The position numbers and the translations under genes are program-made. From the NCBI GenBank assembly GCA_965215115.1, contig OZ244050.1, positions 2,062,323 to 2,126,322 of the forward strand: DNA of 64,000 nt. The letters run 5' to 3'. The notes beneath the pieces were generated by a model. It had not been told where the DNA came from. It worked only from the letters and a program-made list of their open reading frames with translations, and did no database searches. The stretch is from Saprospiraceae bacterium. GTDB taxonomy: Bacteria; Bacteroidota; Bacteroidia; Chitinophagales; Saprospiraceae. Shown here piece after piece: positions 130 to 63,937 of this stretch; the first letter of the stretch is position 1; every line of letters starts with the position of its first letter.

Positions 130-1374
130 TTGCCCATGGATCCCCAAACCATCGACCTCATCGCCGCTCAGACCAAAGGCCCCTCCCCCGGTGCGAACCC
201 GGGCGCCGCCCCAACTACACCACTGTCGGCGCGCGTGTTCTCGTCTCACGTATTGATGAACCTACAGGCCGCACCGGTTTGGCAGGCCGTCGTCGTGGCG
301 GCGGTCGGGAGTTTCCTCGTCAATCTACTGTTCGTGACGGCCTCCGGCGGCATCGACTCCACCGACTGGGCGAACACCCTGCGCGGGATGGGCCTCGGGT
401 TCGCGATCGCGTTCTCGATGTGGCTCAGCCTCGCCTACCTCAACAACTGGCTCACGCACCGCGTCGATTGGCTCGACAAACCGTGGCCCGCTTTCGGGCT
501 CACCCTCGTCGCCAATATCGTCGTCGGCACCACCGTGCTCGGCTTCGTGTACTTCACCTCCTTCGTGATCCTCGGCGACGAGACGGCCCTCGACTGGCTC
601 CAGCGACAGAGGTTCGGCAATTACGTCGGCTCCGTGCTCATCGGACTGCTCATCAGCGCGATCTACCAGGGGGCGTACTTCATCAAGCTGTGGCGCACCT
701 CCCTCGTCGAGGCGGAGCAACTCAAGTCGGCCAACCTCACCGCCAAGTACGAGACCCTCAACGCGCAGATCAACCCGCATTTCCTCTTCAACTCGCTCAA
801 CGTACTCTCGGCCCTCGTGAAGCGCGACCCGGACGCGGCCGAGGGTTTCATCCAGGGCCTCAGCGAGGTGTACCGCTACGTGCTCGACGTGCGGGGGGAG
901 CAAATGGTGAGCCTCGAACGTGAGTTGCGCGCCCTCGACGCCTACGCGCGCCTCGTGCTCATGCGTTTTGGCGAAAGCCGCCTCCGGATCGACGTGTCCG
1001 TCGTCCCGCAGCCCGGCGATCTCATCGTGCCGCTCGCGCTGCAGATGTTGATCGAGAATGCCGTCAAGCACAACGGCGCCACGCGGAAGAACCCGCTCGT
1101 CGTCGAGGTCGCGCGCCAGGACGGGCACATCGTCGTGTCGAACAACAAGGTGCCGCTCTTCGAGGCGGTCGAGAGTCGCGGCATCGGGCTCGCCAACATC
1201 CGCGAGCGCTACGGACTGGCGCTCGGGCGGGAGGTCGTGGTCGAGGATACGGAGGGCACTTACGCCGTGCGCTTGCCGCTGTTCAGAGTCGAGGACAGGC
1301 GCGCGGCCGTCACCTCCCGATCCGCGCCAGCCCCGCCTTCGCCTGTTGGTGCAGGTCCGGCGCGAACTCGCTAG
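130..1374 (+). CDS. LytS/YehU-family sensor histidine kinase
   Basis: 414-aa ORF with a multi-TM N-terminus, the His_kinase box NPHFLFNSLN and HATPase_c motifs (ENAVKHNG, GIGLANIRERY). Confidence 0.85.
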   Translation: MPMDPQTIDLIAAQTKGPSPGANPGAAPTTPLSARVFSSHVLMNLQAAPVWQAVVVAAVGSFLVNLLFVTASGGIDSTDWANTLRGMGLGFAIAFSMWLSLAYLNNWLTHRVDWLDKPWPAFGLTLVANIVVGTTVLGFVYFTSFVILGDETALDWLQRQRFGNYVGSVLIGLLISAIYQGAYFIKLWRTSLVEAEQLKSANLTAKYETLNAQINPHFLFNSLNVLSALVKRDPDAAEGFIQGLSEVYRYVLDVRGEQMVSLERELRALDAYARLVLMRFGESRLRIDVSVVPQPGDLIVPLALQMLIENAVKHNGATRKNPLVVEVARQDGHIVVSNNKVPLFEAVESRGIGLANIRERYGLALGREVVVEDTEGTYAVRLPLFRVEDRRAAVTSRSAPAPPSPVGAGPARTR

Positions 1375-2806
1375 GCTCCATCTGGAGGGCCATCTGGTAG
1401 TAGACCCGCGCGGACGGCTTGTCGCGCTGGCGCTCGGCGATGAGGCCGAGCTCGACGGCCGACTTGCAGGCGTAGTAAGGCGCGGCATCGCGCCCGATGG
1501 CGATGGTGTTCTTGTAGCGCTGCTTCGCGAGCTCGACCTGGCCGCGCTTGTCGGCGATGCGGGCGGCGCGGTAGGGGAACTCGATGCGCTGCTCGGGACT
1601 CAACAGACCCTCGATCGTCTTCCCGATGGCCGCCTCGGCGCGGTCGTAGTAGCCGCCGTCGAACAGGAGCCGCGCGCGGAGGAGGTCGACGTTGGGGACG
1701 AGGTTCTGCTCGGCTTCCCGCAGGGCGCTCTTGTCGCTGCCGGCCACCGTGTTGCCCATCGTCCGCACCTTCGCCATGTACCCTTTGTAGCCCGCCAGAT
1801 CGCTGGCCAGTAGCTGGTGCCAGGCCAGCTTCTGGTAGGCCTCCTTGACGAAGTTGCCGCTCGGCCGTCGCTTTACGTAGCTCCGTAGGTAGACGGGCGC
1901 CTGGTCGCTGAGCTTGCGCTGGAGGCAGACCCCGAGCATGAAGTCGAGGTAGGGGAAGGGGTGGTAGCGCGGGGAGTGCGGCCGCCGCGACAGCAGGCGG
2001 ATGGCCTCGTCGTTGCGCCCGGACTGCATGGCGATGTTGGCCGTCACGAAGACGCCCAGCAGGCTCCGACTTTCGTCAAAACCCGCCGAGCGGATCTTGC
2101 TCCACGCCTCGTTTTCCTCGCGCTCGAGGTGCAGCAGCAGGAACGCGTACAGGGCGGTGGTCTCCTGGAGGAACGGCGACTTGTCGCGGCGTTGCTGCGC
2201 CAGTACGCGCTCGAGGTTGCGCTTCCCGCCCGCCAGGTCACCCTCCATGCCGGTGATCAGCTCGAGGCCCCACTGGTAGCCGCTCGGCACGGTGGCCACG
2301 GCCGCCTGCAGCAGGCCCATCTCCTTGCGGGAGAGCTCGAACCCCGGGTGCGCCGCGATGTTGTCCTCCAGCAACTTATAGGCCCGCCGCACCTCGCGCA
2401 TCGTCGTGACGTACTCACCGAACTTGAGCCGCGCCAGGGCCCAGTGCAGCATGATGTTGGCCTGGGTGTAGAGGTAGTAGGGCGAGTCCTTGGGCCCGTC
2501 GCGCAGCCGATCCAGCCGCGCGCCGTACTGCTTCTCGAGCCGCGCGAAGGCCTTCGGGTCCTCGTCGATGTAGACCTCGAAAAAGTCCGCGTAGTCCTCG
2601 AGCCAGACGGCCACGAGGTTGTCCGGGTCGCGCTGCTGGATGGCCTTGAGCTGCGCGCGGCCCTCCGCGAGCCTGAGCTCGAGGATCGTCTCGTAGGCCG
2701 CCGTACACTCGGCATTGAAGTCGTAGCGCAGCGCGGCGCGCAGCGGCGGAGCACTCGCGCACACGATAGCGGCTACGAGGAGCAGGACTCTGGGTGGGTA
2801 CTTCAA
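1310..2806 (-). CDS. Secreted TPR-like helical-repeat protein
   Basis: 498-aa ORF with signal peptide MKYPPRVLLLVAAIVCASAP and helical-repeat composition. No specific family recognised. The 3' end overlaps the convergent kinase gene by 65 nt. Confidence 0.55.
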   Translation of the reverse strand: MKYPPRVLLLVAAIVCASAPPLRAALRYDFNAECTAAYETILELRLAEGRAQLKAIQQRDPDNLVAVWLEDYADFFEVYIDEDPKAFARLEKQYGARLDRLRDGPKDSPYYLYTQANIMLHWALARLKFGEYVTTMREVRRAYKLLEDNIAAHPGFELSRKEMGLLQAAVATVPSGYQWGLELITGMEGDLAGGKRNLERVLAQQRRDKSPFLQETTALYAFLLLHLEREENEAWSKIRSAGFDESRSLLGVFVTANIAMQSGRNDEAIRLLSRRPHSPRYHPFPYLDFMLGVCLQRKLSDQAPVYLRSYVKRRPSGNFVKEAYQKLAWHQLLASDLAGYKGYMAKVRTMGNTVAGSDKSALREAEQNLVPNVDLLRARLLFDGGYYDRAEAAIGKTIEGLLSPEQRIEFPYRAARIADKRGQVELAKQRYKNTIAIGRDAAPYYACKSAVELGLIAERQRDKPSARVYYQMALQMEPSEFAPDLHQQAKAGLARIGR

Positions 2807-2827
2807 GGGCGGGGGTGGCGCGGCCGA

Positions 2828-3603: not shown

Positions 3604-4725
3604 TTAGTGAGGCGGAGTGACGGGGACGTAGAAACGCACGGGATTAGTGTCCCGGCTCGTCATTCGGGCCGCGAAGGTATCGAATTGGCGCGATATGGTT
3701 TCGTACAGCAAGTCGATCGTGAAGCGCTCGGATTCGTAGTGCCCGATGTCGCAGACCACGATGCGGTTGTCGGCGTCGAAGAACTCGTGGTACTTGAAGT
3801 CCGCCGTGACGAAGGCCTGGGCCCCGGCCCCGATCGCGGCTTTCAGCAACGAGCTCCCGCTGCCCCCGCACAGGGCCACGCGTTCGATGTGTTCGCCGGT
3901 GGCCTCGGTGACGCGCAGGCCCTCGAGGTCCATCGCGTCGCAGAGGTAGTCGAGCCACTCGGCGTAGCGCATCGGTTGGGGCAGGGTTCCGACGGCGCCC
4001 ATGCCGAAGTCGGGGTGCGTGGACTCGACGTGGTACAGGTCGTAGGCCATCTCCTCGTAGGGGTGTGCGGTTTTGGCGGCAGCTAGGACGGCTTTCGCCA
4101 AAACCCTCGGCACCAGCACCTCGAGCTTGTCCTCCGCGACGCGCTCCAGGTCGCCGACGCGCCCGAGCGCCGGGGCGGCCCCTTCCTGCGGTCGGAACGT
4201 CCCCTCGCCGGGCGTCCGGAACGAGGCCCGGTCGTAGTTGCCGATGCGCCCGGCCCCGGCGTCGAACATGGCGTGGGCCACGGCCTCGGTGGCGTCGCGC
4301 GGGCAGTAGACGGCGAGCTTGCTGAGGGTGCCGGGGTGTGGCTGGAGCACGGTCACGTCCTGGAGCCCGAGTTTCTGCGCGATGCGGCCGTTGACGCCCC
4401 GGGCGAGGACGCTGTCGAGGTTGGTATGGATGGCGTAGATGGCCACCCTGGCACGGATGGCCGCGATGACGGTGCGCTCGACGTACGTTTTGCCGGTAAG
4501 GCGCTTGAGTCCCCCGAAGATGATCGGGTGGTGCGCGACGACGACGTTGCAGCCGGTCTCGACGGCCTCCTCGATGGTGGTCTCGAGGCAGTCGAGGGTC
4601 ACGAGCACGCCGGTGACGATGCTGTTGGGTTCGCCGACGAGCAGACCGCTGTTGTCGTAGGGGGCCGCGAGGGCCGGGGGTGCGACGGCCTCGAGGGCGT
4701 GGATGAGCTGGGAGAGGCGCGTCAT
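3604..4725 (-). CDS. Nif3-like dinuclear metal centre protein (GTP cyclohydrolase 1 type 2 homologue)
   Basis: 373 aa with NIF3 signatures (VVAHHPIIFGG, AIYAIHTNLD, CGGSGSS...TADFKYHEF). Confidence 0.85.
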   Translation of the reverse strand: MTRLSQLIHALEAVAPPALAAPYDNSGLLVGEPNSIVTGVLVTLDCLETTIEEAVETGCNVVVAHHPIIFGGLKRLTGKTYVERTVIAAIRARVAIYAIHTNLDSVLARGVNGRIAQKLGLQDVTVLQPHPGTLSKLAVYCPRDATEAVAHAMFDAGAGRIGNYDRASFRTPGEGTFRPQEGAAPALGRVGDLERVAEDKLEVLVPRVLAKAVLAAAKTAHPYEEMAYDLYHVESTHPDFGMGAVGTLPQPMRYAEWLDYLCDAMDLEGLRVTEATGEHIERVALCGGSGSSLLKAAIGAGAQAFVTADFKYHEFFDADNRIVVCDIGHYESERFTIDLLYETISRQFDTFAARMTSRDTNPVRFYVPVTPPH

Positions 4726-5166: not shown

Positions 5167-6498
5167 CTAATCCAGCTTCCGCTCCCACAGCATCTTTCCG
5201 GTCTTGTCGTAGACGCGTAGCGTGAGGGTGCGCGCGGTGCGGGGGCCGGCGATGGTGACGGTGCCGAAGTTGTGGACGCCGACGTGGGTGCCGTCGACGC
5301 GGTTGGCGTTCGGCTCGTCCTTCGCGCGATCGCCGGTGGCGCCGGCGGTGAGGGGGCTGACGGTGAAGTCGTAGAGCCGCACGTCACCGACCTGGAGGTG
5401 GCTGAGCTCGGAGTGGTGCCGATCGCCGGTGAGGAAGACGACGTTGTCGAGGCCCTCGGCGGCGACGCGGGCGAGGAGCCGCGCGCGTTCCTCCCGGTGG
5501 GCGGCGGCGTAGTTCTCGAAGACGGGGGCGTCGTTGAGGACCTGCCCGCCGATGGCGACGAATTTGAAGCGCGCCGAACTAGACACCAGGGCATCGATGA
5601 GCCAGTCGAACTGCGCCTCCCCGAGCAGCGTCATCGGCGCGCAGGTCTTGCAGGCGTTCGGGGCCCGGAAGGTGCGGTCGTCGAGGAGGAAGAACTCGGC
5701 GTCGCCGTAGACGAAGTTGGTCCCGATCCCGGGCGCGAGCTGCGGGTGTTGGGTCGGCGGGTTGGCCCAGAACAAATCAAAGGCCTCGCGCGACCAATCC
5801 TTGTGGACGTAGCTGCGATCGGAGTCGTTGGGGCCGTAGTCGTGGTCGTCCCAGATGGCGTAGTGGTGAACGTCGCGCAGCAGGCCCTGCAGCTCCGGGA
5901 TGGCCCGCGAGTGGGAGTAGCGGTGGAGGACGCCGCCGCGGGTGTCGAAGTCCCCGGTCCGCATGTAGATGTTGTCCCCGAGCCAGAGCATGAAGTCGGG
6001 CCGCAGGGTGTCGATGGCTCCGAAGATGCCGTAGTCCCCGCCGTAGGGCGTGCCGGGGCGGTCGAAGGCGGGCTCGTTGGCGTAGTAGCAGCTCCCGAGC
6101 GCGAAGGTGATCGCGGGTGGGTCGGCGCGGTACTCCCAGAGGGTTTGGGTCTTGAAGCGCAGGGGTCTCGCGGTGGCCATCGCGCGTCCGTCCATGAGGA
6201 TTTGGTATTCGTAGGTCGTGCCCGGCATCAGCGAGTCCGCCTTCAGCGTGGCGCAGTAGGCGTCGGTGCTAGTGGTTTTGGCGACAGCCGAGTAATGCAA
6301 GTCCTTGATGTCCGACACGGGCCAGTAGCGCAGTCGCACGCTCGCCGCGCCGTCGGTCTGCATCCAGACGGCCACTTCGCGCATGGTGTTGTAGCCGAGC
6401 ATCGGTCCGGAGCGGAGGAGGGCTTGCGCCAAAACCGATCGCGGGAGTGCCGCGGTGGCCAGGAACGCGAGCGCGAGAAGGAGGGGGCGGAAGGGCAT
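5167..6498 (-). CDS. phoD: PhoD-family alkaline phosphatase (secreted metallophosphoesterase)
   Basis: 443 aa with a signal peptide and PhoD/metallophos motifs (LGSCYY, WLGDNIY, WDDHDYGPND, FLTGDRHHSE). Confidence 0.8.
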   Translation of the reverse strand: MPFRPLLLALAFLATAALPRSVLAQALLRSGPMLGYNTMREVAVWMQTDGAASVRLRYWPVSDIKDLHYSAVAKTTSTDAYCATLKADSLMPGTTYEYQILMDGRAMATARPLRFKTQTLWEYRADPPAITFALGSCYYANEPAFDRPGTPYGGDYGIFGAIDTLRPDFMLWLGDNIYMRTGDFDTRGGVLHRYSHSRAIPELQGLLRDVHHYAIWDDHDYGPNDSDRSYVHKDWSREAFDLFWANPPTQHPQLAPGIGTNFVYGDAEFFLLDDRTFRAPNACKTCAPMTLLGEAQFDWLIDALVSSSARFKFVAIGGQVLNDAPVFENYAAAHREERARLLARVAAEGLDNVVFLTGDRHHSELSHLQVGDVRLYDFTVSPLTAGATGDRAKDEPNANRVDGTHVGVHNFGTVTIAGPRTARTLTLRVYDKTGKMLWERKLD

Positions 6499-7717: not shown

Positions 7718-8803
7718 ATGATCCGAAAGCTACTTACCGGACGTGTGGTTGTGCTCGTCGCCCTCGCGCTCACCGCCGGCAGCGCAGGTGCGCAACAGCA
7801 GACGGTGATCTACCCCGGGTCGACGGGGACGAATCTGCTTAGCCGCTTGCAGCAGGGGTATTCTCCGAAATCCGGCCTCAACTACGGCACGGCCCGCAAC
7901 CAGTTGTACGCAGATGTTTGGGTTACCAATAATACCCTCGAGTGTCAGTACACGGGCCTCACGATCTCGATGGCCGGCAACGGCGAGCCGAAGGACATCG
8001 CCTTCGGGAAGGGCATCAACACCGAGCACGTCTACCCCCAGTCAAAGGGGGCCGAGGGGGACGCCCGCGCCGACATGCACCACCTCTACCCCACGCAGAT
8101 CGACGTCAACTCCGACCGCGGGAGCCTACCCTTCGGCGAGATCCCCGACGCGCAAACGCTGACGTGGTACCGCCTGAAGGAAGAGCTTCGGACCGTCCCC
8201 CCCGCCAACGTCCGCGACGAGTACTCCGAGGGGACCACCGCCGCCTTCGAGCCGCGCGAGAAGATCAAGGGCGACATCGCGCGGGCGGTGTTCTACTTCT
8301 GGTCCATCCACCGCGCCCGGGCCCAACGCGAGGATGCCACCTTCTTCGGGAAGATGCGCGCCGACCTGTGTACCTGGCACGAGACGGACCCCGTCGACGC
8401 GGCCGAGGCCACGCGCTCGAGGAAGATCGCGACCTACCAGGACAATGAGAATCCCTTCGTCCTCGATTGCTCGCTCCCGCAGCGACTGGCCTACTGCCCC
8501 AATCTATCGCAGGCGTGTCGCGACTTGACGCCGGTGGTGCAGCTTTCGCGAAAACCTTCCGTGGAGGCCTTCCCGAATCCCCTCGGTGAGGTGCTGCAGG
8601 TAGAGGGGATACCGGGTGGGTCGAGTCTACGGCTCCTGGATGCCCTCGGGCGGGAAGTGGCGGCGTGGACGGCTGCGGACTTCGGGCGCGCGGGCGCCGG
8701 GGGGGCTACCCTAACGTGGGTGGTGCCATCGGACCTGCCTGTCGGGATGTACTTCTTGCACGTCGGCGCTAGTGGGGAGGTGGTGCGGCTGGTGAAGCGA
8801 TAG
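7718..8803 (+). CDS. Secreted endonuclease I-family nuclease with T9SS C-terminal sorting domain
   Basis: 361 aa with a signal peptide, endonuclease I motifs (TEHVYPQS, DMHHLYPT, NSDRG, ARAVFYF) and a C-terminal ~80-aa Por/T9SS-type domain (FPNPLGEVLQVEG...YFLHV...VRLVKR). Confidence 0.85.
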   Translation: MIRKLLTGRVVVLVALALTAGSAGAQQQTVIYPGSTGTNLLSRLQQGYSPKSGLNYGTARNQLYADVWVTNNTLECQYTGLTISMAGNGEPKDIAFGKGINTEHVYPQSKGAEGDARADMHHLYPTQIDVNSDRGSLPFGEIPDAQTLTWYRLKEELRTVPPANVRDEYSEGTTAAFEPREKIKGDIARAVFYFWSIHRARAQREDATFFGKMRADLCTWHETDPVDAAEATRSRKIATYQDNENPFVLDCSLPQRLAYCPNLSQACRDLTPVVQLSRKPSVEAFPNPLGEVLQVEGIPGGSSLRLLDALGREVAAWTAADFGRAGAGGATLTWVVPSDLPVGMYFLHVGASGEVVRLVKR

Positions 8804-9401: not shown

Positions 9402-9725
9402 TTACAAGCCTTGCATCCCCTCGCCCCAGAGCTTCTTCATCCGCGCCCAGCCGACGGCGCGGAAGATGACCGTCCTCTCCGCTGCGCTGCTGTTGGCGTC
9501 GCGGTGGCGGGTTTTGCGGAAACGCACCAAACCGGCCTCCTCGAGGAGCCCGAGGTGGTAGTTGAGCTTAAGGCTGGAGATCTGGAGCTGGTCGGCGAGC
9601 GGCGTGAAGTCGGTCGGGCCCTGCGCCTGCAGGACTTGCAAGAGGCGGCGGCGCGTCGGGCTGTCGAGCGCCTGTAGCGCGGCGGCCGGGCGGAAGGCCT
9701 CCGGCCGCGAGGGCAGTGAGTGCAT
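9402..9725 (-). CDS. ArsR/SmtB-family winged-helix transcriptional regulator
   Basis: 108 aa from the internal ATG at 9725. HTH pattern LDSPTRRRLLQVLQAQGPTDFTPLADQLQISSLKLNYHLGLLEEAGLV. Confidence 0.8.
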   Translation of the reverse strand: MHSLPSRPEAFRPAAALQALDSPTRRRLLQVLQAQGPTDFTPLADQLQISSLKLNYHLGLLEEAGLVRFRKTRHRDANSSAAERTVIFRAVGWARMKKLWGEGMQGL

Positions 9726-9933
9726 AGTGTTTCGATTCTCGCACAAATATAAACAGAATGTTGGCAAGGGCTCGATGTTTCAACATTTGTTGATTTTTAC
9801 GCTCGCCTGCGAGAAATGTCCGTAGCGCTCAACACGACCGGCATGCCTGCGTTGCGCTAGACGCGCCAGCGGTTTTGACGAAAGTCGACCCAAGCGCTAG
9901 ACCCCTAGACCCAATCCCCTAGACCCCACCCCC

Positions 9934-11238: not shown

Positions 11239-11323
11239 CCCAGGCCGTTTGCCCGTACGCGACCGTGTGAGGGGTGCGTTTTGCCGACAGGCGACTACCT
11301 TTCGGTTTGTCTAACCGAAGCAC

Positions 11324-15492: not shown

Positions 15493-15756
15493 GGCAGTCC
15501 TCGCGGTAGTAGAGGTGACGGTCGCGCCTACCGTGTGGGGCCCTGGGATTCGTAGGAAAGATGAAATCCGGACCGATTGGTTGAGCTGTCCGTTTCGCTG
15601 TCTCGAGTTCATGGGGACCGTGCTAAGGACCGCCACTCCGTCAGTTTTGGCGACAGCCGCGTGACAAACTTGCAGTAATGGTTTTGCGGAAACGCCATTC
15701 CGTCCCCTCCCAACCCAAGGCACGCGGATTGATGTTAAGGCAGCAAAGCACTATTT

Positions 15757-49940: not shown

Positions 49941-52900
49941 TGGCCACGAAGTTCCCGTCCGTCACCCTCCAGGGCAACATCCTCACCTTCGAGGCGCTCG
50001 AGAAGATCGCCGCCGGCAAAGACGATGGCGATATGCCGCGGCAGACGGCGCGCGAGTACGGTTTCGCGAGTGAGCAAGAGCTGCGCAGCGAGATTCAGGG
50101 GCAGTGGGCTGTCGCCAAAACCCAGTACACCGCTTTCCAGCAGCAGGTCGAGCGATTAAAGGATTCTGAGCCCGGTACCACCAAAACTCGGAGCGGTTGG
50201 ATGATACCGCTACTCAGTTTGTTGGGCCACGATCTGCGCTACCAGGCCAAGGCGCAAGAGATCGACGGGCGGGCGTACGCCATTAGCCACGTGGCTAGTG
50301 CGACCGCCGAAACAGGTTTTGGCGAAATCGAAGATTCGCGCAAGCAAAGCCGCAAAACCGACGCCCCGAGCACCAACTTCCCCGTGCACATCGTCGGCGC
50401 CAACCAAAGCCTCGACCGCCGGGGCGAGGGCATGCGCATGAGTCCGCACGCCCTGGTGCAGGAATTTCTCAATCGTCACGAGAGCCTCTACGCCATCGTC
50501 ACCAACGGCAAGTCGCTGCGCCTGCTGCGCGACAGCGCCAACCTCACCAAACTGAGCTACGTCGAGTTTGATTTGACGCGACTGTTCGGCGAGGACCTCT
50601 TCACCGACTTCGCGCTGCTCTATCGCCTGCTGCACATCAGTCGCCTGCCGGAGGAGCCGACTGCCGGGGCGGACAGTATCCTGGAGAAGTATCACCAGGA
50701 GGCGCTGAAGTCCGGGTCGCGCATCCGGAGCAAACTCAGTGAGGCCGTCGAGCGGGGCATCGTGATGCTGGCCAACGGGCTGCTCGCCAATGCGGACAAC
50801 CACGCCCTGCGGCAGTGGGCCGCCGAGCAGCCGGACGCGCCGGCCGCCTACTACGAGGCGCTGCTGAAGCTCATCTACCGCCTGCTGTTCGTGATGGTGA
50901 TCGAGGAGCGCGACCTCATCTTCCCACCGCCCGAGACCCGGGCAGACGATGGGCTAGACGGCCTGCGCGGCCCGCAGCCGATGGCCCACCGCGACGTGTA
51001 CTACCAGTTTTACTCGCTGAAGCGCCTGCGTGGCCTGGCCCTCAACCACCGCCTCGCCAACGCGCGCGAGTACGACCTGTGGGAGAGCTTGCGCAACACC
51101 TTCGCGCTGTTTGAGCCCGGGGGTACCGGCGCCAAACTCGGTATTGGCCCGCTGGCAGGGAGTCTGTTCGGGACGCAGGCGCTGAGCGCCTTGCAGGGCG
51201 GGCGCGTCAACAACCGCGTGCTGCTGGAGTGCCTACGGGGCCTTAGCCAGTTTGACAATGGCCAGGGCGGCGTGATGCCGGTCAACTACGCGAGTCTCGA
51301 CGTGGAGGAGTTCGGTTCGGTGTACGAGGGCCTGTTGGAGTACGCACCGCACATCGACCCGAAAACGCTGGAGTTCCGGTTTGTCAAGGGCCAGGACCGC
51401 AGCAGCAGCGGTAGCCACTACACGCCTGACGAGTTGGTGCAGCCGCTCATCAAACATAGTCTCGAGCACCTGATCGCGGATCGGACGGTGGCCCCGGATG
51501 CGGCCGAGCCTAAACGCGAGGCCGCGATTCAGCAACTGCTGCAACTCAAGGTGACCGACGTGACCTGCGGCAGCGGCCACATCTTGCTAGCGGCAGCGCG
51601 ACGCATCGGCCTGGAAGTCTCGCGCCTGCGCAGCCAGGAGGAGCAGCCCAATCCCATGGCCATTCGCGAGGGCACCCGCGACGCCATCCAGCGCTGCATC
51701 TACGGGGTCGACCGCAATCCGCTGGCCGTCGAACTTTGCAAGGTGGCGCTCTGGCTGGAGGCGCATGTCCCGGGCCGTCCGCTCGGCTTTCTCGACCACC
51801 GCATCAAGTGCGGCGACGCGATCGTGGGCGTGGGTCACCTCGAAGACTTGCAGAAGGGTATTCCGACGGAGGCTTTCAAAACGTTCACTTCAGAAGAGAA
51901 GTCACTTGGGGCAGCATTACGCAAGCGTAACCAGAAGGAGCGCAAGGACCGGGAAGCTCGGGTCGGGGGAGATTACCAGACGAATTTGTTAAGCGAGCAA
52001 TTTAGCGTCAAAGACCGTTTGGCCGCCTTTCGGCAAAACTTCGCCCGTTTTGCCGAGATGCCCGAGCGCACGGTGGCGGAGATTGAGGAGAAGGAGGCGG
52101 CGTACAGGAAGTTGAGCCAGGGCAGTAACTGGTGGTTTATCAAAACCCTGTGTGACGTGCAGATCGCGCAGTTTTTTATTCCGAAGACGGATGATAAGCG
52201 GGTGGTGACAGACAGTCGGTTTTTTGAGATGATGCGTGGGGCAAGGGATACGCAGGCGGAAGGTGCGGCGGTGTCGGAGAGCAGTGAGCGACGCTTTTTT
52301 CACTGGTTTTTGGAATTTCCGGAGGTGTTTGCGGGGGGGGGCTTTGATTGTGTGTTGGGGAATCCGCCTTTTTTGGGGGGGCTAAAAATTCCCGACAAAA
52401 TTGATGAAATTGCACACGAATACTTACAAAGTATGTTTCATGCATCTGGAAGAGCAGATTTAGTCTCCTACTTTTTTCGCAGGACATACACCCTTATCGG
52501 ATCTGCTGGTAAAATTAGTCTCTTAGCGACTAATACGATCTCCCAAGGTGACACTCGAATCGCAGGACTTCAGAGCATATTAAAGCTTGGTGGAGTAATT
52601 AACTTTGCCATACCCTCAATAGTATGGCCAGGAGCCGCAGAAGTAAGAGTTGCGAGCGTATCACTTTCAACTAAATCCGGCGCTTCAGCCAAGAAATATA
52701 TAGGTTCATCAGAAGTCACATTCATTAGCAGCTATCTTGATTCCGCGCCGGAGTTACATCCATACAAGATCAAAAGTAACAAAAATGAATCCTTTCAAGG
52801 TGACAACGTTGCAGGATTAGGGTTCTCTATTACCCGATCAGAGGTCAAAACTATGATTGAGTCGGATCCGAAAAATGAGCAGGTTTTATTTCCATACATC

Positions 52901-56172: not shown

Positions 56173-56937
56173 TCAAGCGCCTATTGAATCTCCAACAGAA
56201 GCTACGCCATGAGATATTGGCATCTCCCCCCACTCCCGTCCCGCCAATACCCGCCCGTTCGCCTTCTTCGAGCGCCGCTGGCCATCCTGTCCGTACGTAC
56301 CCCACTGCTTAAAGAAGAAAGCCACGTTTTGGCGCAAGCACTCATCCCGCACCCCCTCCGCCCAACCGGATGACATCGGCCTAGCCTTGACGCCGCTCTC
56401 CCCGCCGACGATGACCCAGTGGATGCCGTCGAGGTTTAGGTCTCCCAATCCCTCGAGCAGAGGCTCGCAGGAAAGGAAGCGGGTGCGGGCCGGTACCTCG
56501 CGGAGGGCCTCGATGCGGTGCAGCGTACGTCGGTCTTCGACGGAGGTCCCGAGCCAGGCGTTTTCAGGTACGACGCGAGTGGTGAAGTAGGCGACCATGC
56601 GTTCAGGTCGCTTGGTGAGGATTTGATACGTGTGACGAGGGGTATCCCGGATGGTGGCGAAGACGGCATCGAGGTGCTCTTCGGTCGCGCGCTCGTGGAA
56701 GAGGTCACTCATCGAGTTTACGAAATAGAGCGTGGGCTTGCGCACCTGGCGTGGGCCGTCGACTCGGCCGGCGTGCTCGCGGAAGGCGAAGCCGTCTTCG
56801 TAGCCGGGCGTCCCCATGGCCTGCAGACGCTTGGCCATGACAGCGGCGTAGCACTCGCGGCAGCCGGCGGAAAGTTTCGTACAGCCAGTTGATGGATTCC
56901 AGGTGGACTCGGTCCATTCGATGGCGGAGGTGCTCAT
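56173..56937 (-). CDS. DUF5131 (phage Gp37/Gp68 family) three-Cys protein
   Basis: 254 aa. N-terminus IEWTESTWNPSTGCTKLSAGCRECYA is the family signature, including the Cys triad. Confidence 0.85.
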   Translation of the reverse strand: MSTSAIEWTESTWNPSTGCTKLSAGCRECYAAVMAKRLQAMGTPGYEDGFAFREHAGRVDGPRQVRKPTLYFVNSMSDLFHERATEEHLDAVFATIRDTPRHTYQILTKRPERMVAYFTTRVVPENAWLGTSVEDRRTLHRIEALREVPARTRFLSCEPLLEGLGDLNLDGIHWVIVGGESGVKARPMSSGWAEGVRDECLRQNVAFFFKQWGTYGQDGQRRSKKANGRVLAGREWGEMPISHGVASVGDSIGA

Positions 56938-58095: not shown

Positions 58096-58392
58096 TTGCG
58101 TCCTCCGATTTTTGCGCCGTTCTCTTGCGCGATGAGTCTGTTTTGGCGAAAGCTCACTCCAAAAACCAGCGGCACCGACAGATCGAGCGGCTTGCACCCA
58201 GGCAACGCAGTCCTCTACGTCTCGACGGGCGGCTTCAGCGGCGACGCCCGCCGCAAGGCAGATCGAGCGAACACCCCCAACACCCTTGTCGACCTCGACT
58301 GCCTCGCCGCGCTCTTGACGCAGTACTACGAGTCCTACGACGCCGACACCCGGACGCCGGCCCCAATGCGAAAGGTGTGGAGGCCGGTGTAG
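58096..58392 (+). pseudogene. C-terminal remnant of a restriction endonuclease (Mrr-type)
   Basis: Only the last ~65 codons look homologous (VLYVSTGGFSGDARRKA...LVDLDCLAALLTQYYESYD...RKVWRPV). There is no catalytic N-terminal part. Confidence 0.45.
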
Positions 58393-59865: not shown

Positions 59866-60609
59866 CTACATCAGCAATTGATAAATAGGCCACAGCCGCC
59901 CCATCTCCCCCGCCACCGTCTCCAAAATCCGATCCTCCCGCAAGCGCTCGTCGGACGGATCAAACGCCCGACTCACCATCGCGTACTTCCCCACCCGCAC
60001 CGTCCGCAAGGCCGCCTTGAGGTCGCCGACCGTCTCCATCTCGCTGAACTCGAAGGTATTCCCCTCGCCCGTCCACAGGTGGTACTCCCGCAGGCGCTGC
60101 ACCTCCGCCCACAGCGCCGCCAGCAGCTCCCGGTCCGCTTCCGTCGTCGGGCGCGCGGCGGCGCGTAGCTTCTCCTTCTCCCAAATCCCCGCCCCCGGCA
60201 TCCCGACCCGCAGCCAAATCCCGAGCCCGGAGCCCGTCACCGTCACCTGGATCCGCATCTGGTACACCGGACTCTCCTGGCCCTCCGGTACGCGACCGTC
60301 CAGCCGGTCCGTCTGCGCCTTGCTCCGGCCGTAGTGCAACCAGATCTCCTGGATCTTCGGCGAGTTGAAGTAACTGCCCTCCTCGCGGTGCGCTACCCTC
60401 GACGTTAAGTACGCGCGGTCGTAGTGCGGGTGCAGGTCCAGACCGCGCTCGGCGAGTTTTGGCGAAAGCCGTCCCTCCAGCTCGATGAGCCTGTCCTGGA
60501 CATCTTCCCTGGCGTGGCGCGCGGCGAGGGTCTGATCGCGGTGGCGAGCCGGCGCGAAGGCGGCGTAGTGGTCTTGCTTGAAGAAGTAGTCGGTGTCGTC
60601 GTGGCGCAT
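59866..60609 (-). CDS. Hypothetical protein
   Basis: 248 aa from the internal ATG (MRHDDTDYFFKQ). The longer ORF to 60765 would read through an intergenic inverted motif pair. Confidence 0.45.
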   Translation of the reverse strand: MRHDDTDYFFKQDHYAAFAPARHRDQTLAARHAREDVQDRLIELEGRLSPKLAERGLDLHPHYDRAYLTSRVAHREEGSYFNSPKIQEIWLHYGRSKAQTDRLDGRVPEGQESPVYQMRIQVTVTGSGLGIWLRVGMPGAGIWEKEKLRAAARPTTEADRELLAALWAEVQRLREYHLWTGEGNTFEFSEMETVGDLKAALRTVRVGKYAMVSRAFDPSDERLREDRILETVAGEMGRLWPIYQLLM

Positions 60610-60714: not shown

Positions 60715-60791
60715 GTTTTGGCGAAAGCCGAATTGCCTTGCTAAGGATGAGCATTTTGGGGACATTTATTTACAACGGCTTTCGCCAAAAC
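60715..60791. repeat. Inverted pair of the window-wide motif (16-nt perfect arms, 45-nt spacer)
   Basis: GTTTTGGCGAAAGCCG (60715-60730) / CGGCTTTCGCCAAAAC (60776-60791). Lies downstream of the AraC-family gene stop and upstream of the next minus-strand gene. Confidence 0.9.
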
Positions 60792-60841: not shown

Positions 60842-61750
60842 TCACCCCAACCCCCGCCGCCACGCCCCCGGCGTACTCCCGACTTTAGCCTTGAACAGCT
60901 TACTGAACGATTGCGTGTACGCGAAGCCCAAACCGTATGCCACCTCGCTCACCGTGGCCTCGCCGGCCGCCAACTCGCGCTTCGCGCAGGCCACGAGCCG
61001 CGCCTGGATCAACTCCTGGGTGCTCTGCCCCGTGAGGGCCTTCAGGACGCTCCCGAGGTACTTCGGCGACACGGCCAGCGACGCGGCCACCGCCACCACC
61101 GTCGGCACGCCGCGCTCGCGGAGACGCTCCGGCGCAAAACCGGCGTCGAGGACGTGCTCCAGGCGCGTGAGCAGGTGGCGGTGCTCGCGCTGCCGCGTGC
61201 CGAACTGCCGGTGGTAAAACCGGTCGGCGTAGTAGAGCAGGCTCCCGACCTGCGCCACGAGGATGTCGCGCGTGAAGCGATCCGGCGCCGGGGCGGCCGA
61301 CTCGCGCGCCAACTCCCTGAGCAGCCCGACCACCGTCGCCTCCTCGGTCTCCGACAGGTGCAGCGCCTCGTCGACGGCGTAACCGAAGTAGTCGTACCGC
61401 GTGATCGCCTCGGCCAGGGGCGTGCCCAACAGCAGGCGCGGGTCGAACATCAGCAGCCAGCCCTCGTGCGTGAGCCGCGGCTCGCCCCGCAGCGAGTACA
61501 CCTGCCCCGGCGCGACGAAGACCAGCTTGCCGCCGTCGAAACCGTAGCTGCCCTGGCCGTAGCGCAGGGTCACGTTCACGTTTTGCTTCAGGGCCACCGA
61601 GTAAAAATCCTGGATCAGTTGCGCCGGCTCGTCCTCGCGCAGGCGCGCGATGTCCCCGAGGCGCACGACGCTCAGCAGCGCGTGTTTTGGCGAAAGCAAA
61701 CCCCGAAACGCGTGGTACTCAGCGATGGAGCGCAGGCGGCGCGGCGGCAT
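60842..61750 (-). CDS. AraC-family transcriptional regulator
   Basis: 302 aa from the internal ATG (MPPRRLRSIAEYHAF). C-terminal AraC HTH (TVSEVAYGLGFAYTQSFSKLFKAKVGSTP). Confidence 0.85.
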   Translation of the reverse strand: MPPRRLRSIAEYHAFRGLLSPKHALLSVVRLGDIARLREDEPAQLIQDFYSVALKQNVNVTLRYGQGSYGFDGGKLVFVAPGQVYSLRGEPRLTHEGWLLMFDPRLLLGTPLAEAITRYDYFGYAVDEALHLSETEEATVVGLLRELARESAAPAPDRFTRDILVAQVGSLLYYADRFYHRQFGTRQREHRHLLTRLEHVLDAGFAPERLRERGVPTVVAVAASLAVSPKYLGSVLKALTGQSTQELIQARLVACAKRELAAGEATVSEVAYGLGFAYTQSFSKLFKAKVGSTPGAWRRGLG

Positions 61751-61760: not shown

Positions 61761-62660
61761 TTATCGACGGTACACGGCGGCGAACTCGCGGGCGAAATCA
61801 TCCACCTTGACCTGCCCAAAATCGGTGGGCTTGTGCGCAAGGTAGTCCTCGTGCAGGAGGCCGCTGCGGATGGCGGCGTACATCTCCACCATGCCCGCGG
61901 CGATGGCCGGCTGCATGCCCGCCCCCGCGAGACTGTCGTAAAACTCGTCGTCGCCGATCTGCACCCACGGCAGGTCGGGCTGCCCGACGGCGGCCCCGAC
62001 GGCGCTCGCGAGTTCGGCGTAAGTGCACTCGTCGCTGGTCACGTAGCGGACGCTGCGCCGCGCGGTGGGCGTCGCGTTGACCTCCGCGGTCACGGCGTCG
62101 GCGATGTCGCGCGGGGCCACCCAGGCGTTGCGGCCGTCGGGCGCGAGCGTGCCGCCCATGATGCCGTGGTCCCGGATGAGCCCGACCTGGGGGTAGAGGT
62201 TGTAGTAGATCTCCAGCGGGCGCACGTGCGTCACGGCCACGTCGTCGGGCAGGGCGTCGAGGCACTGCTCTACGTCGTAGGTGCCGCGCAGGATGCCGGT
62301 GCCGTCGCGGCGGTGCGCGCCGATGCTGCTGAGGTTGACGACGCGCGCGACGCCGGTCGTTCGTACCGCTTCCGCAAAACCGTGCCCGAGGGTCTGGAAG
62401 TAGGCCAGCAAGTCGAGGGACCGGTCGAAGTAGTCGGCCGGGGGCGCCATGACGTAGGCGAGGTCCGCTTCCGCAAAACTCGAGGCGAGGAAGGCCACGT
62501 CCTCGAGGCGACCGATCGCCGGGGTGGCGCCGAGGGCGCGGATGGCTTTCGCGCGGGCGGGATCGCTGCTGACGACGGTGACGCGGTGCCCGTCGGCGAG
62601 GAGGCGTCCGGCGAGCGGGCGCCCGATGCGCCCGAGCGATCCGGTGAGGGTGACGTTCAC
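61761..62660 (-). CDS. NmrA-like / NAD(P)H-binding domain protein
   Basis: 299 aa. N-terminal Rossmann pattern VTLTGSLGRIGRPLAGRLLADGHRVTVV. Adjacent to the AraC regulator. Confidence 0.8.
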   Translation of the reverse strand: MNVTLTGSLGRIGRPLAGRLLADGHRVTVVSSDPARAKAIRALGATPAIGRLEDVAFLASSFAEADLAYVMAPPADYFDRSLDLLAYFQTLGHGFAEAVRTTGVARVVNLSSIGAHRRDGTGILRGTYDVEQCLDALPDDVAVTHVRPLEIYYNLYPQVGLIRDHGIMGGTLAPDGRNAWVAPRDIADAVTAEVNATPTARRSVRYVTSDECTYAELASAVGAAVGQPDLPWVQIGDDEFYDSLAGAGMQPAIAAGMVEMYAAIRSGLLHEDYLAHKPTDFGQVKVDDFAREFAAVYRR

Positions 62661-63169
62661 GGTGCGAGTGGTGGTTTTGGTGAACGGCGAAGGTGGCGGG
62701 GCGCGGGCCAGGGTTTGTGTTCGGATGTCGGGAATTTGGGTGGGGATGTCGGCACCACTTGAGAAGCGGGCAGACCGCTCACTAGCTCGGACCTTGCTCG
62801 CTTACCCAGGCTATCCATCCGTTTGTAGGGCGGTCGCCTTTACGCAGCTGTCCGGGCAGTACGGACGATCTGATTGATCAGTGCCTTTTGATTCGACTCC
62901 GCCCTCGTTTGCGGCCTCGACGTTTGCTGCATAGCTTTCGCCAAAACCGATCCTTTCCAGCTCCTGGCGAAACAGTCCAAATCAATCCCGAAAGGCGACA
63001 AACCCGACCCCAGCTACCCGAGTACGACCGGTCAGCCCTCCGGTGGCGGCAGGGGCAACAACCCGAAGAAGGGTTAAATCCGGGGGGGCATTTGGGTGGA
63101 GTTGCAGCTGCGGCGCTTCAGTATGCCCGCGATCCAACGAAGGATAATCTCTGCTGCTGATACGAAGGA

Positions 63170-63937
63170 TCACTGCTTCATCTGATCGGCGTAGCGCTCG
63201 GTCACCGAGTGCAAGTACCGCTCAATTTGCACGTCCAGTCCCCCCTCACTACCGGACGCCAAACACCCCTCCGCCAGGCCCCCAATCGCGCGCGCCACGC
63301 TCCCGTCGCTGAGGTCGGCAAGCATCGTCGGCATCAGCGCCGCCAGGACGCCCGGCGGCAGATCGTCGAAGCCGCGCCCGTCGAAGGGGTCGGTGCCGTA
63401 CCGCAGGCAGAGCGCCGTGGTCAGGCGGGCGCGCGCGGTATCGACGAAGTGCGCCGCCTGCCACGGGCGACGCCGGGCGTGGGCGACGCCCGCGAGCCGG
63501 ACGTACAAAACCGCCTCTGCGACAAGTGCGCGCATGTCCGGCACCCGCTTCGGCGCGGGCGCGCCGGTCTCCCCGAAGACCAACGCGAAGCGGGCCGTCG
63601 TCGCCGCGAAGCTCGTCTGCGGCCGCGCCGACACGTCGAGTTGCATCCCGTGCTCGTGCAGGAACACGCGGTAGACGGCGTCTTCGTACGGGATGTCGAG
63701 CAGGCGCGCGAAGCCCGGGTCGTAGTCCGCGAGCCAGGACTCGGCTTGCGCCAAAACTTGCGCGACCTCTACGCCGGGGCGGGTCCCGAGCGCGAGGTCG
63801 ATGTCCGAGTGTCGGTCGCGGAACCCTTCGGCCGTCGACCCGACGTGCGCCGCCGAGGCAACCTCCGGGTGCTGAGTGGCCCACTGGGTAAGGTCGGCGA
63901 GGAGTCGGGCGCGGGCGGTGGGGAGCATCGCGCGCAA
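63170..63937 (-). CDS. Nucleotidyltransferase-domain protein
   Basis: 255 aa. Pol-beta-type NTase motif HVGSTAEGFRDRHSDIDLAL. Substrate unknown. Confidence 0.55.
   Translation of the reverse strand: MRAMLPTARARLLADLTQWATQHPEVASAAHVGSTAEGFRDRHSDIDLALGTRPGVEVAQVLAQAESWLADYDPGFARLLDIPYEDAVYRVFLHEHGMQLDVSARPQTSFAATTARFALVFGETGAPAPKRVPDMRALVAEAVLYVRLAGVAHARRRPWQAAHFVDTARARLTTALCLRYGTDPFDGRGFDDLPPGVLAALMPTMLADLSDGSVARAIGGLAEGCLASGSEGGLDVQIERYLHSVTERYADQMKQ

Follow-up and report, generated by a model that had tools for sequence, protein, structure and literature searches.

The stretch of DNA analysed here, hereafter called the window, is 64 kb long and covers positions 2,062,323 to 2,126,322 of OZ244050.1, from a Saprospiraceae bacterium. 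Its ClpB protein is 61-74% identical to those of the GTDB representatives that were fetched, which places it in the Bacteroidota, nearest to the Saprospiraceae. Genes were called on the basis of GC content at third codon positions (GC3) and then checked against Pfam; they include clpB and a defence island. Mostly inside genes, and also between them, lie the copies of a 15-nucleotide (nt) motif made of an invariant GTTTT tail and a very small hairpin. The 59 copies found in the window are given below with their coordinates, the strand and the sequence. The stem of three base pairs (bp) is perfect unless stated otherwise, sense and antisense refer to the coding sequence (CDS) in which a copy lies, and the peptide encoded at the motif is in parentheses.

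965..979, +, GTTTT-GGC-GAAA-GCC: perfect stem; His-kinase CDS, sense (RFGES)
2068..2082, -, GTTTT-GAC-GAAA-GTC: perfect stem; CDS 1310-2806, sense
4070..4084, +, GTTTT-GGC-GGCA-GCT: inner 2 bp; NIF3 CDS, antisense; inverted pair with 4090
4090..4104, -, GTTTT-GGC-GAAA-GCC: NIF3 CDS, sense (VLAKA)
6275..6289, +, GTTTT-GGC-GACA-GCC: PhoD CDS, antisense
6421..6435, -, GTTTT-GGC-GCAA-GCC: PhoD CDS, sense (VLAQA)
8541..8555, -, GTTTT-CGC-GAAA-GCT: inner 2 bp; endonuclease I CDS, antisense
9511..9525, +, GTTTT-GCG-GAAA-CGC: HTH_20 CDS, antisense
9872..9886, +, GTTTT-GAC-GAAA-GTC: intergenic, 48 nt upstream of 9934(+)
11278..11292, +, GTTTT-GCC-GACA-GGC: intergenic, 32 nt upstream of 11324(+)
12100..12114, -, GTTTT-GGC-GAAA-GCC: CDS 11324-14440, antisense (AFAKT)
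15644..15658, +, GTTTT-GGC-GACA-GCC: clpB leader
15681..15695, +, GTTTT-GCG-GAAA-CGC: clpB leader, second copy
16039..16053, -, GTTTT-GGC-GAAA-GCC: within clpB (AFAKT); in 7/7 clade genomes, not in outgroups
16943..16955, -, GTTTT-GC-GGAA-GC: offset-0 form; clpB, antisense
17276..17290, -, GTTTT-GCA-GCAA-TGC: clpB, antisense; window-specific
18487..18501, -, GTTTT-GGC-GAAA-GCC: intergenic, convergent genes on either side
19126..19138, +, GTTTT-GC-GGAA-GC: offset-0 form; outer-membrane protein (OMP) CDS, antisense
20085..20099, +, GTTTT-TGC-GAAA-GCA: OMP CDS, antisense
21199..21213, -, GTTTT-GGC-GAAA-GCC: OMP CDS, sense (VLAKA)
21605..21619, +, GTTTT-GCC-GAAA-GGC: CDS 21295-22416, antisense
22375..22389, -, GTTTT-GGC-GCAA-GCC: CDS 21295-22416, sense (VLAQA)
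22432..22444, -, GTTTT-GC-GGAA-GC: offset-0 form; intergenic
22689..22703, +, GTTTT-GCC-GAAA-GGC: CDS 22548-23924, antisense (AFRQN)
22775..22789, -, GTTTT-GGC-GTAA-GCC: CDS 22548-23924, sense
27722..27736, -, GTTTT-TGG-GAAA-CCA: CDS 26904-27965, sense
27827..27841, +, GTTTT-AGC-GAAA-GCA: inner 2 bp; CDS 26904-27965, antisense
27897..27911, +, GTTTT-GCC-GTAA-GGC: CDS 26904-27965, antisense
29312..29326, +, GTTTT-GCC-GAAA-GGC: CDS 27962-29626, antisense (AFRQN)
30143..30157, -, GTTTT-GGC-GAAA-GCC: CDS 29636-30340, sense (VLAKA)
32384..32398, +, GTTTT-GGC-GTAA-GCC: MMPL CDS, sense
33995..34009, -, GTTTT-TGC-GGAA-GCT: inner 2 bp; CDS 33758-34561, sense
36150..36164, +, GTTTT-GGC-GTAA-GCC: AMP-binding CDS, antisense
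36826..36840, -, GTTTT-GGC-GCAA-GCC: AMP-binding CDS, sense
37524..37538, +, GTTTT-CGC-GTAA-GCT: inner 2 bp; HIRAN-protein CDS, antisense
37637..37651, +, GTTTT-GCC-GAAA-GGC: HIRAN-protein CDS, antisense
38544..38558, -, GTTTT-GGC-GCAA-GCC: HIRAN-protein CDS, sense (VLAQA)
38988..39000, +, GTTTT-GC-GGAA-GC: offset-0 form; HIRAN-protein CDS, antisense
39170..39184, -, GTTTT-GGC-GAAA-GCC: intergenic, 27 nt upstream of 39143(-)
42747..42761, -, GTTTT-GCC-GAAA-GGC: defence helicase CDS, antisense
42991..43005, +, GTTTT-GGC-GGAA-GCC: defence helicase CDS, sense (VLAEA)
43541..43555, +, GTTTT-GGC-GAAA-GCC: defence helicase CDS, sense (FGES)
44492..44506, +, GTTTT-GCC-GAAA-GGC: defence helicase CDS, sense
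45293..45307, -, GTTTT-GGC-GAAA-GCA: inner 2 bp; defence helicase CDS, antisense
48088..48102, -, GTTTT-TGC-GCAA-GCC: inner 2 bp; SNF2 CDS, antisense
48585..48599, +, GTTTT-GGC-GAAA-GCC: SNF2 CDS, sense (VLAKA)
48951..48965, -, GTTTT-CCG-GAAA-CGG: SNF2 CDS, antisense
50107..50121, -, GTTTT-GGC-GACA-GCC: DrmMI-like CDS, antisense
52025..52039, -, GTTTT-GCC-GAAA-GGC: DrmMI-like CDS, antisense (AFRQN); last copy ahead of a low-GC stretch
56326..56340, +, GTTTT-GGC-GCAA-GCA: inner 2 bp; DUF5131 CDS, antisense
58140..58154, +, GTTTT-GGC-GAAA-GCT: inner 2 bp; doubtful small open reading frame (ORF) 58096-58392
60456..60470, +, GTTTT-GGC-GAAA-GCC: CDS 59866-60765, antisense
60715..60729, +, GTTTT-GGC-GAAA-GCC: CDS 59866-60765, antisense; inverted pair with 60777
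60777..60791, -, GTTTT-GGC-GAAA-GCC: intergenic, 12 nt upstream of 60765(-)
61684..61698, +, GTTTT-GGC-GAAA-GCA: inner 2 bp; AraC CDS, antisense
62368..62380, -, GTTTT-GC-GGAA-GC: offset-0 form; CDS 61761-62660, sense
62467..62479, -, GTTTT-GC-GGAA-GC: offset-0 form; CDS 61761-62660, sense
62933..62947, -, GTTTT-GGC-GAAA-GCT: inner 2 bp; intergenic
63743..63757, -, GTTTT-GGC-GCAA-GCC: CDS 63170-63937, sense (VLAQA)

Anatomy and abundance of the motif

The unit reads GTTTT, one base, a G/C stem of 2 bp closed by C-G, a GNNA loop and the complementary half of the stem; positions beyond these 15 nt hold less than 0.3 bit each. GTTTT occurs at 136 sites in the window, 61 of which continue as N3-GNNA-N3, and at 42 of these the two triplets pair perfectly. 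This strict form is expected 0.05-0.18 times from Markov models of order 1, 3 and 5, and over all GNNA contexts of the window only 2.6% have a complementary 3-bp stem. Eleven further sites form only the inner two pairs, which gives 53 core copies (inner two stem pairs formed), and six offset-0 copies, in which GCGGAAGC stands straight after GTTTT, complete the total of 59. The top 9-mer of the window is GTTTTGGCG, with 32 copies, and the 13-mer GTTTTGGCGAAAG is present 17 times over both strands, as against 0 times in 100 dinucleotide-preserving shuffles. Tail and hairpin are one unit: GTTTT precedes 42 of the 177 three-bp GNNA hairpins of the window (24%), the runner-up prefix being found 3 times.

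A preliminary description of this DNA had counted the same 17 exact 13-mers and put the whole family at about 57 copies, and the over-abundance that it proposed stands against the Markov controls. The variant classes that it named (GCC-GAAA-GGC, GGC-GCAA-GCC, GGC-GTAA-GCC, GGC-GACA-GCC, GAC-GAAA-GTC, GCG-GAAA-CGC, GGC-GGAA-GCC and the GCGGAAGC forms) are all at the places it gave, and its coordinates are right apart from one misprint (60466 should read 60456), the values on the reverse complement being those of the 13-mer. Its picture of a GTTTT tail joined to a covarying mini-hairpin was borne out, with two amendments: the stem is essential over 2 bp rather than 3, and the loop is not a free GNNA.

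Both amendments come from a set of seven genomes (198 kb in total), consisting of the window and the loci of six relatives, about 20 kb each around clpB (~130 kb from the relatives). The ClpB proteins of these relatives form a tight group at 86-91% identity, the next level down being 76%. The set holds 104 copies of the offset-1 G/C-stem core and 12 of the minor form with GCGGAAGC straight after GTTTT. The commonest stem-loops are GC-GAAA-GC (44), CC-GAAA-GG, GC-GCAA-GC and GC-GGAA-GC (11 each) and GC-GTAA-GC (6), so that GAAA is by far the preferred loop, followed by GCAA, GGAA, GTAA and GACA, and no GAGA loop, GATA loop or GNA triloop was found with a GTTTT tail. GCGAAAGC is preceded by GTTTTN in 44 of its 60 occurrences (73%). 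Relatives of lower GC content often leave the outer stem pair unformed but retain the tail, the loop and both inner pairs; the essential stem is only 2 bp, closed by C-G.

The motif is clade-wide. Confinement to the window, which the preliminary description had said would speak against it, does not apply: all six relatives carry it, with 0.26-0.62 copies per kb where the window has 0.83, over a GC range of 48-70% for the seven. The comparison set, 1,418 kb (1.42 Mb) from 80 other Bacteroidota, among them other Saprospiraceae loci fetched by ClpB similarity, contains the core pattern 7 times, that is 0.005 per kb or ~100-fold less; the GTDB relatives at 61-74% ClpB identity are all without the motif and served as outgroup. 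Extrapolation of 0.9 copies per kb over 5.25 Mb gives an estimate, not a count, of several thousand copies per genome. An artefact of assembly was rejected, since the relatives' loci come from long-read assemblies and from independent NCBI, JGI, ENA and Logan assemblies. In a scan of IMG/VR viral sequences with the exact 15-mer there were 72 single matches, which is the chance level, and no multi-copy phage; among the metagenome matches listed almost all were single and at chance level, multi-copy contigs appearing in one marine assembly (ORXU01).

Copies are spaced in a Poisson-like manner, with a coefficient of variation of 0.91 as against 0.97 for random placement, and a regular spacing was rejected on this ground. 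Close inverted pairs number only about 3 in 64 kb. In the one within the NIF3 gene (4070-4104) the copies lie 20 nt apart and make up a 35-nt near-palindrome, GTTTTGGCGGCAGCTAGGACGGCTTTCGCCAAAAC.

Base pairing within the motif

The 61 GTTTT-N3-GNNA-N3 sites were chosen blind to pairing. At positions 7 and 14 they show G-C 41 times, C-G 17 times, A-T twice and another combination once, so that 60 of 61 are paired; the mutual information of 1.0 bit was reached in 0 of 2000 permutations, as one would want for the compensatory covariation previously claimed, and pairs 8/13 and 6/15 likewise covary. An alignment of 75 distinct sequence types from the seven genomes, not selected for pairing, has a covariation score of 0.50, against 0.19 when shuffled (0 of 500 shuffles reach the observed value) and 0.04-0.13 with slid partners. 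Compensatory flips are also seen between orthologous sites. The clpB leader copy (15644), found in 6 of the 7 genomes, carries a double compensatory change in locus L278, with GCC..GGC in place of GGC..GCC elsewhere, and a site in the NA37 gene reads GCG..CGC in L082 and GGC..GCA in L083.

Mixed GGC..GGC stems are absent among the 61 sites. A dimer reading half-sites in duplex DNA is disfavoured by this finding, because a protein accepting both GGC and GCC should tolerate mixed sites. The lack of mixed sites, a tail on one side only and a loop without symmetry jointly argue for intrastrand pairing, and hence for a motif that would be read in single-stranded DNA (ssDNA). These same features bear on the proposal that a protein of the nucleoid, a topoisomerase or a factor in chromosome organisation uses the motif, in duplex or supercoiled DNA, as its site of binding or extrusion. 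Strand neutrality, a roughly uniform density and conservation throughout the clade would all suit such a site, and the N4-type mini-hairpin promoters, whose hairpins extrude from supercoiled DNA, are recognition sites of this kind. However, the asymmetry of tail and loop and the strict G-C or C-G pairing point to pairing within one strand, a stem of 2-3 bp is very short for cruciform extrusion, and we know of no nucleoid protein with a 15-nt structured site at 1 per kb; we consider this proposal very unlikely.

The hairpin is of a known type. Extraordinarily stable DNA mini-hairpins were described by Hirao and colleagues (PMC13037366): the melting temperature (Tm) is 76.5 C for GCGAAAGC and 65 C for CCGAAAGG, hairpins with GCAA, GTAA, GGAA or GACA loops melt at 71-72 C, and CGGCGAAAGCCG, with a Tm of 89 C, is nuclease-resistant and poorly bound by single-strand-binding protein (SSB). 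According to the same source, nearest-neighbour-type models cannot capture the mini-hairpin fold; such folding assigns the motif no more than -2.3 kcal/mol and fails to distinguish one strand from the other. The mini-hairpins d(GCGNNAGC / CCGNNAGG), like the motif, have two G-C pairs closed by C-G around a G..A loop; the core sequences of the d(GCGNNAGC) hairpins are the same as those found here and the variants nearly the same (GC or CC stem; GAAA, GCAA, GTAA, GGAA or GACA loop). The stems and loops allowed in the genomic motif thus largely coincide with the Tm table. There are two differences. The known d(GCGNNAGC) hairpins are single sites (phage G4 origin, ssiA, N4 promoters), whereas the genomic copies join it to an unvarying GTTTT tail and, by extrapolation, recur several thousand times in the chromosome; and GNA, GAGA and GATA loops, which are stable in vitro, are unused in the genomic motif. 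Since these unused loops are equally stable, a sequence-specific protein reader would seem to be implied.

Copies in genes, on strands and in foreign DNA

The 53 core copies comprise 8 between genes and 45 (85%) within coding sequences, 19 of the latter sense and 26 antisense. They are distributed about evenly over five of the six reading frames; the sixth, which would read x-F-W-R-K-x, is avoided. Pooling the seven genomes gives 38 copies in sense and 53 in antisense orientation, besides 23 in intergenic DNA; the ratio of sense to antisense is the one predicted if two frames can be used in sense and three in antisense. The peptides VLAKA, VLAQA, AFAKT, AFRQN, FGES and LSPK occur in the window proteins only where the motif encodes them; relative to amino-acid composition, those of five residues are 40-600 times commoner than expected and those of four residues 10-15 times. 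Their codons are rare within the synonymous families (GTT 6%, TTG 14%, GCT 7.5%, AAA 27%). It follows that the nucleotide word drives the peptides and not the reverse, and a protein repeat was rejected, since the peptides exist only at motif-encoded places.

A GNRA-tetraloop hairpin preceded by a U-run might instead act in transcripts. C(GNRA)G is also a favoured tetraloop in RNA, and intergenic copies upstream of a gene are mostly sense (13 versus 5), although 6 of those 13 represent a single orthologous site, the clpB leader, and the bias was discounted for that reason. The majority of antisense copies among those in coding DNA speaks against a role in transcripts, as does one orthologous position of a FAD-oxidase gene (alignment column 585) at which the motif stands on opposite strands in two relatives (L083, 5307-8255, and L276, 17349-20297). 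Moreover, GACA loops are not GNRA, and Rfam has no match anywhere in the window. A terminator was also rejected, because the T-run is 5' of the stem, on the wrong side. An RNA element is thus highly improbable, and the motif acts at the DNA level, not at that of RNA or protein. Compared by eye with its own reverse complement at a shift of one base, the motif agrees at 10 of 14 positions, so that a flip of orientation needs few substitutions.

The history of a single copy can be followed best in clpB. All seven clade genomes carry the AFAKT copy, although the nucleotide identity of their clpB genes is only 70-83%. It shows no variation in 13 of its 15 columns, a degree of conservation that ranks it among the top 0.3% of 15-nt windows along the clpB alignment, and 3 of its 5 third-codon positions are invariant, versus 9% gene-wide; both variable columns (motif positions 6 and 15) form the outer stem pair. 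At this site the outgroup Saprospiraceae encode peptides of equal length but unrelated sequence, for example AKKLMKD; the copy therefore originated by substitution in the clade's ancestor and has been maintained from then on. There is no gap in the clpB alignment, and a mobile 15-nt insertion was rejected for this reason as well as for the length of the outgroup peptides. Lineage-specific gains by substitution are also found, some of them amino-acid-changing, as in the clpB gene of L081. Judged from these alignments, individual copies are maintained at conserved synonymous sites.

The clpB leader deserves mention in its own right. In most genomes TGTCA..TGACA brackets the motif copy there (15630-15700 in the window; ~9830-9900 in L081, L083, L276 and L278; 8433 in L279), and in 4 of 7 genomes a second GTTTTGCGGAAGCG-type element follows the leader copy by ~20 nt. 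The composite could be a putative regulatory site of a heat-shock gene that makes use of the motif. RNAalifold found nothing in the leader past the motif hairpin itself. The clpB gene of the window (15733-18475) is split by a frameshift near 16000, with the N-terminal frame at 15733-16001 and the rest at 16010-18475; ClpB is intact in the relatives (880-910 aa), and the frameshift is probably a long-read indel error rather than the sign of a pseudogene.

Could biased mutation or repair, through quasi-palindrome correction or very-short-patch (VSP)-type repair, leave the motif as a by-product with no function of its own? Template-switch correction can perfect imperfect stems, and VSP-type repair enriches certain short words. 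Known repair biases, however, are less than 2-fold on 4-5-mers, while here the enrichment is ~100-fold and concerns an asymmetric word of 15 nt whose tail does not vary and whose loop is restricted, and the copies are conserved at synonymous sites across genomes of 70-83% nucleotide identity. We regard this explanation as most improbable.

A motif of this build might also be the target of an ssDNA enzyme specific for hairpins, whether a GIY-YIG nuclease of the Ssn kind or a protein resembling HUH/RAYT (RAYT, REP-associated tyrosine transposase), and so form a domesticated or selfish repeat family that this enzyme spreads or maintains. Its single-stranded head beside a covarying hairpin echoes the repetitive extragenic palindromes (REP), with their GTAG head plus hairpin, and the oriented flanks of the NTS elements. 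REP and the bacterial interspersed mosaic elements (BIME) are extragenic, and REP, NTS and SRM elements are 20-50 nt long. The REP/BIME-RAYT systems share with the motif a conserved head beside a covarying hairpin and are read as ssDNA, as is proposed for the motif, and differ in being 20-40-nt imperfect palindromes, often clustered and associated with a RAYT gene, whereas the motif is 15 nt long, begins with GTTTT and has 45 of 53 copies inside genes. The NTS/dRS3 elements of Neisseria, recognised by SsnA, are an abundant hairpin with oriented non-palindromic flanks that is read only as ssDNA and modulates transformation, and the apex of the NTS hairpin, GCGMAVGC, is of the GCGAAAGC type; NTS, however, is 28 nt with a long stem, has hundreds of copies clustered at certain genes and an adjacent ssn gene (PMC11893778). 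The motif is unlike NTS and SRM in its 15-nt unit, its mostly intragenic position and its copy number, estimated in the thousands by extrapolation. The intragenic share and the origin of copies by point substitution do not suit a mobile family, and cleavage of tagged DNA would oppose the accumulation of tags. No Ssn-like or GIY-YIG match was found among the window proteins scanned, no Y1 HUH transposase-like gene was found there or in the Pfam lists of the ~130 kb of related loci, and the same lists hold no GIY-YIG domain. All told, such an enzyme is quite unlikely to account for the motif.

The orientation of copies is balanced in every locus: 27 plus and 26 minus in the window, and 7/6, 6/8, 6/3, 5/6, 4/2 and 4/4 in the other six, with 58 on the G-rich strand versus 56 on the C-rich strand in the pool. 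A polar signal of the Chi or KOPS (FtsK-orienting polar sequence) type, serving double-strand-break processing or FtsK, might be suggested by the high density and by the scarcity of copies in low-GC DNA (1 in 7 kb); Chi is over-represented, is read as ssDNA and marks self DNA. But Chi and KOPS sites are short (5-8 nt), unstructured and strongly skewed, whereas the motif is structured and has no skew in the seven loci or relative to GC skew. At the present sample sizes a skew of this type is excluded, and a polar signal is scarcely credible.

The same balance weighs on the possibility that the motif is a priming or SSB-exclusion signal, in which the mini-hairpin would bar SSB and position a primase, restart or complementary-strand factor on 3'-TTTTG-5', with pppAAAAC as primer. 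A GCGAAAGC hairpin lies in the primase start region of phage G4, ssiA and the N4 promoters contain such hairpins, and mini-hairpins bind SSB poorly (PMC13037366), so that the motif resembles the hairpins of the G4 origin and of plasmid ssi sites. The invariant T-run beside the hairpin would template a purine-started primer, and the density on each strand, ~1 per 2.4 kb, is near the length of Okazaki fragments, which are typically 1-2 kb. A lagging-strand signal should nevertheless be strand-biased, and the loci are not; one orthologous site has even changed orientation without being lost. We therefore think a priming signal unlikely.

Thus copies that are mostly intragenic, strand-balanced, spread over five of the six frames and written with rare codons rule out a protein repeat and argue against an mRNA element, a terminator, REP or miniature inverted-repeat transposable elements (MITE) and Chi/KOPS. 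The preliminary description had reached much of this from the window: it had argued against an mRNA element because copies are both sense and antisense, and a Chi/KOPS signal because of the strand balance, and to these can be added the flipped orthologous site and the counts relative to GC skew in seven loci. The mixture of coding and non-coding sites that it noted, at a density like that of known uptake sequences, corresponds to 85% coding and 59 copies in 64 kb. The comparison of orthologues that it called for shows, at clpB, copies conserved at synonymous sites and gained by substitution. It had also seen that the motif avoids low-GC patches: 1-kb bins with GC <0.55 have 1 copy in 7 kb versus 58 in 57 kb elsewhere (one-sided p=0.009).

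The largest gaps, 22.8-27.7 kb and 52.0-56.3 kb, are low-GC islands. One such island, at 24099-25109, has zero copies of the motif; at 24099-24428 it contains a fragment of a second ClpB C-terminus (ClpB_D2-small) and at 24744-25109 an Abi_2 gene that is truncated. A defence island of DISARM-like composition extends from 39491 to 58037, and its GC-normal parts have a normal motif density. It comprises:

39491-40558: Mrr_cat nuclease
41803-47019: DruE/DrmA-like helicase, 1738 aa
47016-49940: DpdE/DrmD-like SNF2 protein
49940-54526: DrmMI/type IIG methyltransferase
54504-56153: unassigned low-GC ORF
56173-58037: PDC-M30 B+A pair

The window also contains tandem repeats. Intergenic ones with a 150-nt unit lie at 4788-5087 (2.0 units) and 8839-9264 (2.8 units), both with GACCCCGGGCTACTCGTGGTTCGACCCCGCTGGGGTC; they bear no relation to the 15-nt motif and have a strong predicted fold of about -59 kcal/mol per unit. 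At 6526-6593, between the phoD-like and pyrophosphatase genes, a 14-nt unit, AGTTCTCAGTTGAC, is repeated 4.9 times in tandem.

A possible self tag on single-stranded DNA

The motif belongs to the hyperabundant lineage-specific genomic words, within which it is set apart by its covarying hairpin with a single-stranded tail and by its taxon. The closest likenesses are to the DNA uptake sequences (DUS) of the Neisseriaceae and the uptake signal sequences (USS) of the Pasteurellaceae, which also reach ~1 per kb in both orientations, lie in tolerated gene frames and between genes, arise by substitution, shape peptides and are depleted in foreign DNA. They too are shared by a clade, with dialects; here the GTTTT tail and the core are common to the seven genomes and the outer pair is relaxed at low GC. 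The difference is that DUS and USS are plain words without base-pair covariation, and that the host here is a member of the Bacteroidota (Saprospiraceae-like), in which our search of the literature found no uptake sequence described. HIP1 (GCGATCGC) of cyanobacteria is comparable in being hyperabundant, clade-wide, intragenic and conserved beyond codon needs. It is, however, a perfect 8-bp palindrome tied to cognate methyltransferases, while the motif is asymmetric, 15 nt long, built on a covarying hairpin and devoid of a GATC/CGATCG core. The function of HIP1 has been debated for decades; recent preprints tie it to transformation and horizontal gene transfer. As the preliminary description had supposed, the motif itself appears to be new: a full-text literature search with the motif strings returned no paper, and no description of it came up under uptake sequences in Bacteroidota, under hyperabundant hairpin motifs or under repeats of the Saprospiraceae.

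By analogy with these systems, the best explanation that we can offer, and we offer it tentatively, is a self tag that acts during DNA intake or recombination. The motif is, on this reading, a clade-specific signal kept by selection or drive, and it would be read out when one strand is single-stranded, its 5' GTTTT tail then lying beside a C(GNNA)G DNA mini-hairpin. A putative sequence- and shape-specific protein would recognise tail plus hairpin, so that the tag would mark self DNA as it enters or recombines, through transformation or another route of single-strand transfer, and tagged fragments would be preferentially taken up, protected or integrated. Copies would accumulate by point substitution, in either orientation, wherever proteins tolerate them, and would then be retained. 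Single-strand transfer fits because incoming transforming strands give a strand-neutral, genome-wide exposure of ssDNA. In the Neisseriaceae and Pasteurellaceae the distribution of uptake sequences comes from uptake-biased drive and purifying selection (PMC3630211; bioRxiv 10.1101/2025.10.24.684340), a pattern that the distribution of the motif matches. NTS and SsnA are a precedent for a genomic hairpin read as ssDNA in transformation (PMC11893778). That the motif is a selected signal, a hairpin at the DNA level, is far more secure than the specific process in which it would take part.

Two genes of the window can be mentioned here. An endonuclease I homologue (7718-8803, PF04231) belongs to the EndA/Dns family of periplasmic or extracellular nucleases, which limits natural transformation in Vibrio; it is a hint only. 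A HIRAN-domain protein of 580 aa (37401-39143) has four motif copies in its gene; the HIRAN domain is a fold that binds 3'-ssDNA ends, and a functional link is only conjectural.

Several points weigh against a self tag. To our knowledge natural transformation is undocumented in the Saprospiraceae, and no competence gene was found among the window genes scanned, which cover 64 kb only. DUS and USS are recognised without secondary structure, ComP of Neisseria binding duplex DUS, so that a hairpin tag needs a different step, and a 2-3 bp hairpin extruding from relaxed duplex DNA is not plausible. Terminators contain about half of all DUS and USS, which are often arranged there in inverted pairs (bioRxiv 10.1101/2025.10.24.684340), a habit that the motif does not share, with 15-20% of copies intergenic and ~3 inverted pairs. 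The disuse of equally stable GNA, GAGA and GATA loops means that stability alone was not selected, which suits a protein reader but leaves the process unspecified. Finally, the depletion in foreign DNA was observed over 7 kb only.

Hyperabundant words such as DUS, USS, HIP1 and Chi are rare windows on the discrimination of self and foreign DNA by bacteria. As far as we know, uptake sequences are established in two families only, both of the Proteobacteria, and all are plain sequences. The present motif is distinctive in its Bacteroidota host, in requiring base pairing, which argues for ssDNA read-out, and in having visibly rewritten protein sequence and codon choice; its variants are largely those of a 40-year-old curiosity, the extra-stable mini-hairpin, hitherto known only at isolated phage and plasmid sites. 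The 15-mer (GTTTTGGCGAAAGCC) provides a concrete bait for a new ssDNA- and hairpin-specific protein, and the motif a marker of native versus foreign DNA in the genomes of the clade as well as a case in which drive and selection can be weighed against each other as forces of motif evolution. It is rather doubtful, though conceivable, that this is the first structure-defined genome-wide self tag, recognised by a reader protein on incoming or recombining ssDNA in the Bacteroidota, and hence a third uptake or recombination specificity, distinct in mechanism, beside DUS/ComP and USS. If it were so, the variant spectrum of a self tag would be set by hairpin biophysics and not by the read-out of duplex sequence.

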